NCBI RefSeq assembly: GCF_054482595.1
Contig: NZ_CM137008.1
DNA length: 64,000 bases
Reading direction: 5' to 3' (one strand)
A program made the translations under genes and the position numbers. Within the stretch, counting starts at the first letter, position 1. Every line of letters begins with the position of its first letter. Below the pieces are notes generated by a model, which ran no database searches, had not been told where the DNA came from, and saw only the letters and a program-made list of their open reading frames with translations. Below, in pieces: positions 1,409 through 55,605 of the stretch.

Positions 1409-1480
1409 ATTCTTATCCAGTAGCTGAAAAATGGCGGCTATTTTAGCCACAAGCGCGACGTTGCGAAATAGTTTTCCCGC

Positions 1481-2017
1481 TTAACTGCGCGGGTAATGGA
1501 TGAGGGAATGAAAATGTACGGTTTGCTCCCCACCATTACGATAGATATGCGTGACGTCTGCAGCAAATCGAACGCCTTCCCCACAATTAAGGGTCTGCCA
1601 TTCCCCATCAACGCACAGATCAAGTTGTCCATCAATGACGACGACATGTTCGATTACCCCCTTCTCATGGGGCGTCGATTCGCTTATTGCACCAGATGCC
1701 ATCTGAATCGAGAAGTGTTCGAAGCAGAGTTGTGGATCATAAGGAAACAGCGAAGTGATCACCATCGCCTGCTGTTGTGGATCATAAACTGAAGGCGTAG
1801 CGGACTGCGGCGGAGAAATAAATGTTGAAAATGGTACGTTCAACCCGGTGGCAATTTTCCATAATGTCGCGACCGTCGGACTGGACTCATTACGCTCAAT
1901 CTGCCCTAACATTGCTTTAGAAACGCCCGTCGCTTCTGCCAGTCGCGAAAGACTCCAGCCGCGCTGCTGGCGTAGTTGTTTAAGTGTGGTGGATAAAAAG
2001 CGAGCGAGATTTTCCAT
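1481..2017 (-). CDS. ydcN: XRE-family HTH plus cupin transcriptional regulator
   Basis: 178-aa ORF, N-terminal HTH (LSRLAEATGVSKAMLGQIERNESSP), C-terminal cupin-like region. Confidence 0.85.
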   Translation of the reverse strand: MENLARFLSTTLKQLRQQRGWSLSRLAEATGVSKAMLGQIERNESSPTVATLWKIATGLNVPFSTFISPPQSATPSVYDPQQQAMVITSLFPYDPQLCFEHFSIQMASGAISESTPHEKGVIEHVVVIDGQLDLCVDGEWQTLNCGEGVRFAADVTHIYRNGGEQTVHFHSLIHYPRS

Positions 2018-2108: not shown

Positions 2109-3284
2109 ATGCGTCTGTTTTCTATTCCTCCACCCACGCTACTGGCGGGGTTTCTGGCGGTATTAATTGGCTACGCCAGTTCAGCGGCAATAATCTGGCA
2201 AGCAGCGATTGTCGCCGGAGCCACCACTGCACAAATCTCTGGCTGGATGACGGCGCTGGGGCTGGCAATGGGCGTCAGTACGCTGACTCTGACATTATGG
2301 TATCGCGTACCTGTTCTCACCGCATGGTCAACGCCTGGCGCGGCTTTGTTGGTCACCGGATTGCAGGGACTAACACTTAACGAAGCCATCGGCGTTTTTA
2401 TTGTCACCAACGCGTTAATAGTCCTCTGCGGCATAACGGGACTCTTTGCTCGTCTGATGCGCATTATTCCGCACTCGCTTGCGGCGGCAATGCTTGCCGG
2501 GATTTTATTACGCTTTGGTTTACAGGCGTTTGCCAGTCTGGACGGTCAATTTACGTTGTGTGGAAGTATGTTGCTGGTATGGCTGGCAACCAAGGCCGTT
2601 GCGCCGCGCTATGCGGTAATTGCCGCGATGATTATTGGGATCGTGATCGTCATCGCGCAAGGTGACGTTGTCACAACTGATGTTGTCTTTAAACCCGTTC
2701 TCCCCACTTATATTACCCCTGATTTTTCGTTTGCTCACAGCCTGAGCGTTGCACTCCCCCTTTTTCTGGTGACGATGGCATCGCAAAACGCACCGGGTAT
2801 CGCAGCAATGAAAGCAGCTGGATATTCGGCTCCTGTTTCGCCATTAATTGTATTTACTGGATTGCTGGCACTGGTTTTTTCCCCTTTCGGCGTTTATTCC
2901 GTCGGTATTGCGGCAATCACCGCGGCTATTTGCCAAAGCCCGGAAGCGCATCCGGATAAAGATCAACGTTGGCTGGCAGCTGCCGTTGCAGGCATTTTCT
3001 ATTTGCTCGCAGGTCTGTTTGGTAGTGCCATTACCGGGATGATGGCTGCCCTGCCCGTAAGTTGGATCCAGATGCTGGCAGGTCTGGCGCTGTTGAGTAC
3101 CATTGGCGGCAGTTTGTATCAGGCGCTGCATAATGAGCGTGAGCGCGACGCGGCGGTGGTGGCATTTCTGGTAACGGCAAGTGGATTGACGCTGGTCGGG
3201 ATTGGTTCTGCGTTCTGGGGATTAATTGCCGGAGGCGTTTGTTACGTGGTGTTGAATTTAATCGCTGACAGAAACCGATATTGA
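2109..3284 (+). CDS. ydcO: BenE-family membrane transporter
   Basis: Track ORF 1848..3284; start moved to internal ATG (MRLFSIPPPTLLAGFLAV...) giving 391 aa; polytopic hydrophobic protein. Confidence 0.8.
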   Translation: MRLFSIPPPTLLAGFLAVLIGYASSAAIIWQAAIVAGATTAQISGWMTALGLAMGVSTLTLTLWYRVPVLTAWSTPGAALLVTGLQGLTLNEAIGVFIVTNALIVLCGITGLFARLMRIIPHSLAAAMLAGILLRFGLQAFASLDGQFTLCGSMLLVWLATKAVAPRYAVIAAMIIGIVIVIAQGDVVTTDVVFKPVLPTYITPDFSFAHSLSVALPLFLVTMASQNAPGIAAMKAAGYSAPVSPLIVFTGLLALVFSPFGVYSVGIAAITAAICQSPEAHPDKDQRWLAAAVAGIFYLLAGLFGSAITGMMAALPVSWIQMLAGLALLSTIGGSLYQALHNERERDAAVVAFLVTASGLTLVGIGSAFWGLIAGGVCYVVLNLIADRNRY

Positions 3285-52749: not shown

Positions 52750-54123
52750 TTATTTTAATAACCGCACCCGGCACGTTTTTCCTTTAATCTTCCCGCCCTG
52801 TAACTGTTTCCATGCTTTATGAGCAACAGCCTGACGGACCGCGACATAGACATGCGCCGGATGCACGGCGATTTTGCCTATATCTGCGCCATCAAGCCCG
52901 ATATCTCCTGTCAGTGCACCTAATACATCACCCGGGCGCATTTTGGCTTTTTTCCCGCCATCGATACACAACGTTGCCATTTCTGCTTCCAGCGTCACAA
53001 TGGAACTATTAGCTGGCGGCGTTTGCCAGTTAAGTTTTATCTGCAACATGTCAGAAATGATATTGGCCCGCTGTGCTTCTTCCGGAGCACAGAAACTGAT
53101 CGCCAGACCGCTATTTCCTGCACGAGCTGTACGACCGATGCGATGTACATGAACTTCAGGGTCCCACGCCAGCTCAAAGTTCACCACCAGCTCAAGCGAT
53201 TTAATATCCAGACCACGCGCAGCAACATCAGTCGCGACCAGTACACGGGCGCTACCGTTAGCAAAACGTACCAGGGTCTGATCGCGATCGCGTTGCTCCA
53301 AATCGCCGTGTAATGACAATGCACTTTGCCCTACTTCATTCAGCGCGTCGCAGACAGCCTGGCAATCTTTTTTGGTATTGCAAAACACCACGCAAGAGGA
53401 TGGCTGATGCAAGCTTAATAACCGTTGCAACAGAGGAATTTTGCCTTTACTGGATGTCTCATAAAATTGTTGTTCAATGGGTGGCAAAGCATCTGTTGAG
53501 TCAATTTCAATCGCCAAAGGATCGCGTTGCACTCGTCCGCTGATTGCGGCGATGGCTTCCGGCCAGGTTGCCGAAAACAGAAGCGTCTGTCGAGATGCAG
53601 GCGCAAAACGGATGACATCATCAATGGCATCGCTAAATCCCATATCCAGCATGCGGTCGGCCTCATCCATCACCAAAGTATTCAGCGCATCCAGTGATAC
53701 CGTGCCTTTTTGCAGGTGATCCAGCAAACGGCCCGGCGTTGCCACGATAATATGCGGCGCATGTTGCAACGAATCACGCTGCATACCGAACGGTTGACCA
53801 CCGCACAACGTCAAAATTTTGGTATTTGGCAGAAAACGCGCCAGCCGACGCAATTCACCTGCCACCTGATCCGCCAGTTCACGCGTAGGACACAGCACTA
53901 AAGCCTGGGTTTGAAATAGCGACGCATCAATTTGCTGTAACAAGCCGAGGCCAAAAGCCGCCGTTTTGCCGCTGCCAGTTTTCGCCTGCACGCGAACATC
54001 TTTTCCGGCAAGGATCGCCGGAAGCGCGGCGGCCTGCACCGGCGTCATGGTTAAATAACCCAACTCATTAAGGTTCGTGAGTTGGGCGGGAGGCAAAACA
54101 TTCAGGGTAGAAAAAGCGGTCAC
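52750..54123 (-). CDS. dbpA: ATP-dependent 23S rRNA-specific DEAD-box RNA helicase DbpA (GTG start)
   Basis: 457-aa ORF with Walker A AKTGSGKTAAF and DEAD motif VMDEADRMLD. Confidence 0.95.
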   Translation of the reverse strand: MTAFSTLNVLPPAQLTNLNELGYLTMTPVQAAALPAILAGKDVRVQAKTGSGKTAAFGLGLLQQIDASLFQTQALVLCPTRELADQVAGELRRLARFLPNTKILTLCGGQPFGMQRDSLQHAPHIIVATPGRLLDHLQKGTVSLDALNTLVMDEADRMLDMGFSDAIDDVIRFAPASRQTLLFSATWPEAIAAISGRVQRDPLAIEIDSTDALPPIEQQFYETSSKGKIPLLQRLLSLHQPSSCVVFCNTKKDCQAVCDALNEVGQSALSLHGDLEQRDRDQTLVRFANGSARVLVATDVAARGLDIKSLELVVNFELAWDPEVHVHRIGRTARAGNSGLAISFCAPEEAQRANIISDMLQIKLNWQTPPANSSIVTLEAEMATLCIDGGKKAKMRPGDVLGALTGDIGLDGADIGKIAVHPAHVYVAVRQAVAHKAWKQLQGGKIKGKTCRVRLLK

Positions 54124-54155
54124 AATCTATTCTCGTGGTCATCGACGCAAAGTCA

Positions 54156-54326
54156 TCAGGCGCGTATCCTCGCAGATCTACGCTCACGATGCGACAATTT
54201 AATCGGTTCTTCATCGGGTGGTGGGTCAGGCATGGGTTGCGGGCGAGGGATCGGATCGGGCACTGGAACAGGATCGCCAGGAATCGGTTCAGGGACAGGA
54301 ATTTGCAAATAAATAAGTATCGTCAT
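54156..54326 (-). CDS. Hypothetical proline-rich small protein (56 aa) immediately upstream of dbpA; not in ORF track
   Basis: ATG at 54326 preceded by GGAGGG 5 nt upstream; MTILIYLQIPVPEPIPGDPVPVPDPIPRPQPMPDPPPDEEPIKLSHRERRSARIRA; stop 32 nt before dbpA start. Confidence 0.3.
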   Translation of the reverse strand: MTILIYLQIPVPEPIPGDPVPVPDPIPRPQPMPDPPPDEEPIKLSHRERRSARIRA

Positions 54327-54382
54327 ATTTCCCTCCGGTCATTGGGTGGACTCTTAAAGGGTAGACGCTGATAAATAACAGG

Positions 54383-54505
54383 CAAAAAAAAGCCGACTCA
54401 TCAAAGTCGGCGTCGTACGAATCAATTGTGCTATGCAGTAATTCAAAAAAGGAAGTAAGACAATATGGAGCGCAACGCCCATCGCTTGACGTTGCATTCA
54501 CCTGC
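54383..54505 (-). ncRNA. fnrS: FnrS small RNA (FNR-activated)
   Basis: Minus strand reads GCAGGTGAATGCAACGTCAAGCGATGGGCGTTGCGCTCC...GCCGACTTTGATGAGTCGGCTTTTTTTT, matching FnrS as I remember it; terminator hairpin 54392-54411 plus U8. Confidence 0.8.
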
Positions 54506-54540
54506 AAGAGAGATATTGCCCTGAATGGGTAGAGAGTTTA

Positions 54541-54554
54541 TTGACTTCGCTCAA
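54541..54554 (-). promoter_or_regulatory. Candidate FNR binding site centred about -41.5 of fnrS
   Basis: Minus strand TTGAGCGAAGTCAA (consensus TTGAT-N4-ATCAA, 2 mismatches) 35 nt upstream of candidate -10 CAATAT. Confidence 0.55.
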
Positions 54555-54600
54555 ACTTTGCGGCGTTTTTGTATACAGACAGCCGGAAAAATTGCTTTTG

Positions 54601-55605
<1,005 letters not shown>

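Follow-up and report, generated by a model that had tools for sequence, protein, structure and literature searches.

DPP, PPP and PPD are among the motifs whose translation depends most strongly on EF-P. The closest precedent for a leader that responds to this factor is mgtP of Salmonella, an 18-codon ORF with three Pro codons, through which EF-P controls mgtCBR by way of alternative stem-loops (PMC5299641). The mgtP ORF belongs to an attenuator that senses Pro-tRNA as well as EF-P. Its leader is 296 nt long, the alternative stem-loops (D and E) are defined, and no role is known for the mgtP peptide as such (PMC5299641). In addition, the loss of EF-P brings about Rho-dependent polarity on polyproline mRNAs (PMC5021804). 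A different kind of small upstream ORF is represented by SecM-secA, TnaC-tnaAB and MifM-yidC2, in which a conserved peptide is encoded ahead of a downstream start that lies in a small hairpin. Alternating X-Pro sequence, which is expected to form an extended and rigid polyproline-II structure, is found in the proline-rich spacer of TonB (PF16031, NF008084).

The small protein YnaL of Escherichia coli has been detected as a specific immunoblot band by means of a chromosomal SPA tag, and ynaL was positive in a tetracycline ribosome-profiling screen of K-12 (VanOrsdel et al. 2018, PMC6001520). The same authors noted the adjacency of dbpA and a possible common operon and function for the two genes. 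In the E. coli literature searched, this discovery paper is the only one found to discuss ynaL.

Here we describe the ynaL locus in a window of 64,000 nucleotides, which is the whole stretch of DNA analysed (NCBI RefSeq assembly GCF_054482595.1, contig NZ_CM137008.1). Like mgtP, ynaL is a short ORF with three consecutive Pro codons. However, it has 56 codons, 23 of its residues are selected at the protein level, the PPP is dispensable in some lineages, and the product accumulates. Alternative stem-loops of the mgtP type were looked for in the ynaL-dbpA region and were not found. The gene shares with the arrest-peptide systems the small upstream ORF, the conserved peptide and the downstream start in a small hairpin, but its most conserved part is frozen at the nucleotide level and its C-terminus differs in length between genera. 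YnaL also has the X-Pro alternation of the TonB spacer and the expected polyproline-II form that goes with it. This likeness is compositional only (PF16031 i-Evalue 1, not a significant match; 20.5 bits against an NCBIfam cut-off of 315), and YnaL has neither the TonB C-terminal domain nor a transmembrane helix of normal length.

The ORF is a genuinely translated small-protein gene that keeps its place directly upstream of dbpA across Enterobacteriaceae, and we consider the wider account given here, with its proposals on function and coupling, to be probable as a whole. The gene splits into three regimes, namely a variable N-terminus, a protein-selected (Pro-X)n core and a nucleotide-frozen 3′ end, and it can serve as a case study of how such regimes help to separate a small protein, a leader and a cis-element.

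Identity and layout of the locus

The minus-strand ORF, which codes for MTILIYLQIPVPEPIPGDPVPVPDPIPRPQPMPDPPPDEEPIKLSHRERRSARIRA, is the known small-protein gene ynaL and is not novel. A sequence-only reading of the window had called the ORF unlisted, but this holds only for the ORF track used in that reading. When positions 54000-54600 were compared by megablast with all complete E. coli genomes, the region was found in 5392 of 5426, and each of 30 sampled RefSeq records annotates the matching stretch beside dbpA as ynaL, '(proline-rich small) protein YnaL'. An identical allele in strain XH990 is annotated as WP_021556762.1, and in K-12 MG1655 the gene (b4743, 1409308-1409481) is flanked by fnrS and dbpA. 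The Pfam model PF23677.1, 'Protein YnaL-like', aligns with the whole product (128 bits, i-Evalue 1.3e-37; residues 1-56 on model positions 1-56 of 57), and this match, the genomic position and the evidence for translation, both comparative and published for K-12, all place it in the YnaL family. Since ynaL is a long-standing entry of RefSeq and Pfam and its protein was detected in 2018, the ORF carries little weight as a discovery.

The allele in the window differs slightly from the K-12 form. Whereas K-12 YnaL has 57 amino acids (MTT...IRAC), the window allele codes for 56, with the change T3I and without the C-terminal Cys. A stop replaces the final Cys codon, so that the sequence reads TGA TGA in place of TGC followed by TAA or TGA. 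An exact look-up in a collection of 15 billion proteins recorded neither the 56-aa nor the 57-aa protein.

The features of the locus are listed in Table 1. The sequence and the ORF list agree with the sequence-only reading on the 56 codons, the ATG start and the strong GGAGGG ribosome-binding sequence. Its figure of 32 nt between the ynaL stop and the dbpA GTG is exact, and it correctly placed the ORF between fnrS, identified here by its Rfam family, and dbpA, which is directly downstream.

Table 1. Features of the ynaL locus, in coordinates of the 64,000-nucleotide window
Feature	Position	Strand	Basis or remark
ynaL CDS	54156..54326	-	ORF list, RefSeq annotation, Pfam PF23677, K-12 sequence in PMC6001520
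ynaL TGA stop	54156-54158	-	sequence
ynaL Shine-Dalgarno GGAGGG	54331..54336	-	4 nt before ATG; sequence
(Pro-X)n proline-rich core DPVPVPDPIPRPQPMPDPPPDEE	54207..54275	-	protein-level purifying selection
DPPPD	54213..54227	-	sole consecutive-proline run of ynaL; predicted EF-P-dependent site
Block A CCGATTAAATTGTCGCAT, codons P41-H46	54189..54206	-	pS 0.000 for P41-S45
Block B AGATCTGCGAGGATACGCGCC, codons R50-A56	54159..54179	-	pS 0.000; includes rare AGA, AGG, ATA
ynaL-dbpA spacer, 32 nt	54124..54155	-	alignment
dbpA, ATP-dependent RNA helicase	52750..54123	-	GTG start at 54121-54123
fnrS sRNA gene	54388..54505	-	Rfam RF01796, 134.8 bits
fnrS terminator	54392-54411	-	terminator scan
Candidate weak ynaL promoter TTGCCT-16 nt-TACCCT	54358..54385	-	alignment; tentative
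zntB end	54601		upstream of fnrS
Plus-strand ORF, 76 aa	54082..54312	+
Plus-strand ORF, 78 aa	54135..54371	+

Conservation and coding status

The comparison set consists of 30 Enterobacteriaceae genomes or sequences from at least 10 genera, and the loci comprise 26 from a scan of one genome per species and those of three further genera found by exact protein look-up. The ynaL frame is open and its ATG is kept in all 30. A GGAGG-type SD is kept in most of them and is weakened to AAAGGG or AAGGGG in four. A protein search yielded 162 homologues, every one of which carries PF23677, and the homologues whose source is named belong to the genera Escherichia, Salmonella, Citrobacter, Enterobacter, Klebsiella, Kosakonia, Leclercia, Lelliottia, Superficieibacter and Intestinirhabdus. 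The downstream partner of ynaL is dbpA in every genome examined. The gene order CorA/zntB, YnaL, DbpA, ttcA is maintained in the 26 genome loci and in three more genera, the Klebsiella, Kosakonia and Leclercia loci have ynaL immediately upstream of dbpA, and fnrS adjoins ynaL on its upstream side in 18 of the 18 other loci checked.

Substitution rates were calculated by the Nei-Gojobori method for 12 genus-level representatives. The 23-residue core, DPVPxPDPIPRPQPMPDPPPDEE, has a pS of 0.653 and a pN of 0.100 (pN/pS 0.153), which can be set beside values of 0.658 and 0.070 for dbpA (pN/pS 0.106) and of 0.762 and 0.492 for the N-terminal ~15 residues of YnaL (pN/pS 0.65). Judged by these estimates, the core is under the same selection regime as dbpA and the N-terminus is nearly free. 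The Pro codons of the core differ in their third base, with two to four bases in use, but the residues are invariant. Only in-frame changes in the length of ynaL were seen: E. coli E69 has a deletion of 11 codons, and a Salmonella protein has an insertion or duplication of 10 residues.

On the strength of these comparisons, we regard it as settled that ynaL is protein-coding and under purifying selection. The sequence-only reading had left the coding status uncertain and had proposed a check of conservation and synonymous sites across Enterobacteriaceae; with the frame preserved in 30 genomes and purifying selection on the core (pN/pS 0.15), the status is now clear.

The contrary reading, that the ORF is not a gene and is open only by chance in DNA that is C-rich and periodic, retains practically no probability. 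It would draw on the shortness of the ORF, on the long open frames that are also present on the antisense strand, and on the 6-nt periodicity of the sequence. The periodicity reported in the sequence-only reading is real (autocorrelation z of 2.3, 3.5 and 3.8 at lags of 6, 12 and 18), but Tandem Repeats Finder detected no tandem array at the locus and the period arises only at the codon level, from the alternation of Pro-X. The two plus-strand ORFs that were also reported do exist, but their frames are not conserved. In other genera, the antisense and +1 frames are interrupted by stops at varying places or have no conserved start, and what keeps the antisense frames open in E. coli is simply that CTA and TCA are absent from the sense strand and TTA occurs there just three times. 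The plus-strand ORFs are thus by-products of composition. A chance frame is also at odds with an ATG and frame kept in 30 genomes of at least 10 genera, with the GGAGG-type SD in most of these, with a pN/pS of 0.15 at saturating pS, with the restriction of the observed indels to in-frame changes, and with the detection of the protein by immunoblot. The comparative data and the published immunoblot have already refuted this reading.

The YnaL peptide

AlphaFold, run on the alignment of the family, predicts an extended chain whose core is without secondary structure (pLDDT ~90 at residues 21-40, pTM 0.21). The model fits a rod of the polyproline-II-like type rather than a globular fold. In this view, YnaL would consist of a variable, hydrophobic N-terminus, an extended (Pro-X)n rod of the polyproline-II type and a basic tail. 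The balance tips slightly towards YnaL acting as a protein, with some connection to DbpA or the ribosome, rather than serving only as a disposable leader peptide. Protein-level selection alone is no proof of a trans-acting product, because a ribosome-arrest peptide would also show extended residue conservation.

Two codon blocks with frozen synonymous sites near the end of ynaL

Two blocks of codons near the end of ynaL show no synonymous variation among 12 representative genomes for which the background pS is 0.65. This is a side observation that leaves the identity of the gene as ynaL unchanged. Block A, CCG ATT AAA (T/A)TG TCG (CAT), has 0 synonymous differences in 224 site comparisons over P41-S45, and block B, AGA TCT GCG AGG ATA CGC GCC, has 0 in 394. 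Four of the first five codons of block A are identical in all 30 genomes and the remaining one is only TTG or ATG, and the H46 codon that follows P41-S45 varies (CAA, CGT; H/Q, H/R). Within the two blocks, the substitutions seen among the 12 representatives are all non-synonymous (L/M, R/G, A/E), and the full set of 30 genomes holds a single GCC-to-GCT change. The codons that separate the blocks vary freely. For comparison, 17 of the 450 codons of dbpA are fully invariant across 29 genomes, and these are never consecutive. Block B can form the hairpin GCG-AGGAUA-CGC with GGA in its loop, and its distance from the dbpA GTG stays at ~33-37 nt although the intervening sequence varies.

This pattern points to a constraint on the nucleotides of blocks A and B rather than on the peptide. 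Since hardly any nucleotide of the C-terminal tail varies, its conservation is compatible with selection on either protein or RNA. Comparison of the sequences indicates that the last 16 codons of ynaL carry a putative nucleotide-level element upstream of dbpA, which most likely serves dbpA expression. Candidates for this element include an internal dbpA promoter or a 5′-UTR operator, with the TAAA[T/A]T of block A as a -10 sequence, a protein-binding hairpin, and part of a domain closed by a weak long-range helix. The frozen sites are not mentioned in the literature searched and are possibly new.

Several other candidates for the cause of the frozen sites were tried and rejected. A mimic of 23S rRNA hairpin 92, through which DbpA would regulate its own synthesis, was sought by local alignment of 54124-54215 (minus strand) with K-12 rrlH, and 293 of 300 shuffles equalled or exceeded the real score. 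When the alignment was confined to the PTC region, 199 of 300 shuffles did as well or better. An overlapping antisense or +1 ORF was rejected on the grounds that these frames have stops at varying places and no conserved start. In a crude duplex-energy test of FnrS pairing with ynaL or dbpA mRNA, 242 of 300 dinucleotide shuffles were as good. An Rfam search of 54050-54400 gave no match up to E = 10, and FnrS is the sole family nearby that reaches the gathering threshold.

A dual-purpose gene would accommodate both kinds of conservation. The (Pro-X)n peptide would be selected as a protein, 54159-54206 would be frozen for a dbpA cis-element, and EF-P-dependent translation of ynaL would gate both this element and the weak start of dbpA. 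An internal promoter, a 5′-UTR operator, and a binding site for a protein or sRNA are candidates for such an element. We hold this combination to be unlikely as a whole. If true, it would connect the synthesis of a 50S-assembly helicase with translational capacity, a link hitherto uncharacterised.

Possible coupling of ynaL to dbpA

The distance from the ynaL stop to the dbpA GTG ranges from 14 to 32 nt across genera. The dbpA GTG and the CGAGA located 7 nt upstream of it are invariant, and the spacer is otherwise variable in sequence except for ACC(A/G)CGAGA, which is a weak dbpA SD. A terminator scan found no terminator-like site between the two genes. The consensus fold of the region includes small invariant hairpins only, plus one 5-bp closing helix between AGAAC (54206-54210) and GUUUU (54095-54099). 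This helix is paired in 94.7% of cases and has three compensated cells, and 8 of 500 shuffles were as good.

These features are compatible with a model in which ynaL and dbpA are on one mRNA and ribosomes that finish ynaL help to load the dbpA start, a GTG with a GAGA-type SD 14-32 nt downstream. Slowed translation of ynaL, including that caused by EF-P limitation at DPPPD, would then passively lower DbpA synthesis. We give an even chance to a shared mRNA with ribosome loading of dbpA from ynaL, and this arrangement is compatible with YnaL acting as a protein. A point against coupling is that a 32-nt spacer is long for termination-reinitiation. If translation of ynaL does control DbpA, the locus would be a further case, after mgtP, of downstream control linked to EF-P, with a ribosome-biogenesis factor as its target.

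A more specific proposal, made in the sequence-only reading, is that ynaL is a translation-sensing leader. Stalling at DPPPD under limitation of EF-P or Pro-tRNA would alter dbpA expression through mRNA refolding, lost coupling or Rho-dependent polarity, and would tie synthesis of this ribosome-assembly helicase to translational capacity. The choice of stall site is sound by established motif knowledge, in that DPPPD combines DPP, PPP and PPD and is a predicted strong EF-P-dependent motif, and PPP is present in 25 of the 30 genomes. The position of ynaL 14-32 nt ahead of a GTG start with a weak SD, the lack of a terminator between the genes, and the weakly covarying AGAAC:GUUUU helix that encloses the end of ynaL and the start of dbpA also suit such a leader, for which mgtP (PMC5299641) and Rho polarity (PMC5021804) are precedents. 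However, PPP is replaced by PSP in E. albertii and three Citrobacter (the C. youngae group) and by PPQ in C. amalonaticus (DPPQED), and these lineages show no change in the rest of the YnaL peptide or in the locus. In the (Pro-X)n repeat, the middle Pro of PPP falls on an X, and among the 30 genomes PPP is conserved no more strongly than adjacent non-Pro positions. Moreover, selection for 23 specific residues (pN/pS 0.15) extends far beyond the needs of a PPP sensor, and tagged YnaL accumulates to detectable levels. The stall site is ~90 nt from the dbpA start, which is beyond a ribosome footprint, the stretch that begins at the stall site and runs to dbpA +30 has a minimum free energy no better than that of shuffles (z -0.45), and neither alternative hairpins nor a terminator was found downstream of the stall site. 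The literature and supplements searched contain no paper that links ynaL or dbpA to efp and no report of an efp-dependent effect on dbpA; ynaL is absent from the supplement of an EfpL/EF-P profiling study, in which dbpA is listed solely for a PPI motif of its own, and dbpA is not mentioned in Elgamal 2016. The comparative data weaken the dedicated-sensor form of the leader idea, which we judge improbable, and the passive version of coupling seems more plausible.

It is more doubtful still, to the point of being very improbable, that ynaL codes for a nascent-chain arrest or termination-stalling peptide of the SecM/TnaC/MifM type. Such a peptide would act in the exit tunnel, and a ribosome stalled near the stop would uncover or block the region where translation of dbpA initiates. 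Conservation extends over about 40 residues ahead of the stop, which is roughly one tunnel length, and the C-terminus RSARIRA(C/I)-stop is invariant, with a UGA-C stop context in most genomes. The stop is closely preceded by rare AGA, AGG and AUA codons that do not vary, and a small conserved CACG/UGUG hairpin lies over the dbpA GTG. We take the IRA of YnaL to resemble part of the SecM sequence GIRAGP, a likeness that is three residues long. However, the synonymous sites of P41-S45 and R50-A56 are frozen and the substitutions among the 12 representatives are non-synonymous, which points to RNA or DNA rather than to the peptide. Furthermore, the terminal Cys is lost in the window allele and in the identical XH990 copy, the tails of Klebsiella and some Citrobacter are longer by one to six residues, which would shift the arrest point, and full-length tagged YnaL is made.

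Transcription of the locus

The end of the fnrS terminator is 61 nt from the ynaL ATG, and the only conserved motif between this terminator and the ynaL SD is CTACCCT (54358-54364; invariant CTAC-CT). This motif could be part of a weak ynaL promoter, or it could base-pair through its CCCU with AGGG in the SD. A sigma-70 promoter scan of 53900-54750 found none at threshold, and the ynaL candidate falls below it. By eye, the only candidates are weak ones, namely the TTGCCT-16-TACCCT sequence upstream of ynaL, whose TTGCCT is at the end of the fnrS terminator T-tract, and the TAAA(T/A)T of block A. Inspection by eye for consensus sequences of other sigma factors or of transcription factors gave nothing convincing, and no TSS entries for dbpA, ynaL or fnrS were found in the published supplements searched.

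The fnrS gene is activated by FNR and is expected to be induced anaerobically. It is unlikely that dbpA mRNA comes mainly from fnrS read-through, because Shigella dbpA falls under these same anaerobic conditions. The decrease in Shigella is 1.86 log2, in a report that does not mention fnrS (PMC4229854). The DbpA protein is more abundant in exponential phase than in stationary phase (PMC13393375).

Conserved sequence features around ynaL and the dbpA start
The final 16 codons of ynaL contain two blocks that lack synonymous changes across 12 representative enterobacterial genomes, compared with a background pS (synonymous differences per synonymous site) of 0.65. The substitutions that do occur within the blocks in these genomes are non-synonymous. 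This combination points to a putative nucleotide-level element, located about 35-80 nt 5′ of the dbpA start codon. A hairpin within the dbpA coding region is supported by covariation, wherein 97.7% of the alignment cells at paired positions maintain pairing, compensatory changes occur at three pairs, and none of 500 shuffles matched the covariation score. This hairpin may influence the stability of the dbpA mRNA or the initiation of its translation.

The fnrS terminator and the ynaL start are separated by 61 nt, in which CTACCCT is the sole conserved motif. Together with a TTGCCT sequence that closes the T-tract of the terminator, it makes up a weak promoter-like arrangement. Alternatively, the CCCU of the motif could pair with AGGG in the ynaL SD.

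Features of the ynaL region and of its homologues
Feature	Location	Strand	Description
Two conserved blocks	54159-54206	-	Last 16 ynaL codons; CCGATTAAA(T/A)TGTCG(CAT) and AGATCTGCGAGGATACGCGCC
CTACCCT and TTGCCT	54358-54385	-	Weak promoter-like TTGCCT-16-TACCCT
Hairpin, 9 bp	54059-54086	-	dbpA codons 13-22; CCCAACUCA...UGAGUUGGG
ynaL end	54156-54161	-	GCC TGA TGA; window strain allele
ynaL deletion	L010 (E. coli E69 locus, CP089930.1) 2501-2641		11 codons, in frame, Pro-rich repeat
ynaL duplication	P0075 (Salmonella enterica YnaL homologue)		PDPRPHPQPM, 10 residues, in frame, Pro-rich repeat
ynaN	L001 (genome locus) 1456-1503		K-12 b4773

Variation among ynaL alleles
Other Escherichia ynaL genes end with GCC TGC followed by TAA or TGA, whereas the window strain carries TGA in place of TGC and therefore lacks the otherwise conserved C-terminal Cys. 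This allele also appears in the annotation of E. coli XH990. Enterobacter and Lelliottia carry Ile in place of the Cys. The deletion in E. coli E69 and the duplication in S. enterica suggest repeat-mediated slippage, with the frame apparently always preserved.

In the RefSeq records of E. coli, a tiny annotated ORF of 15 codons, ynaN, is located directly 5′ of the zntB gene. The counterpart of this region in the window is just beyond 55584.
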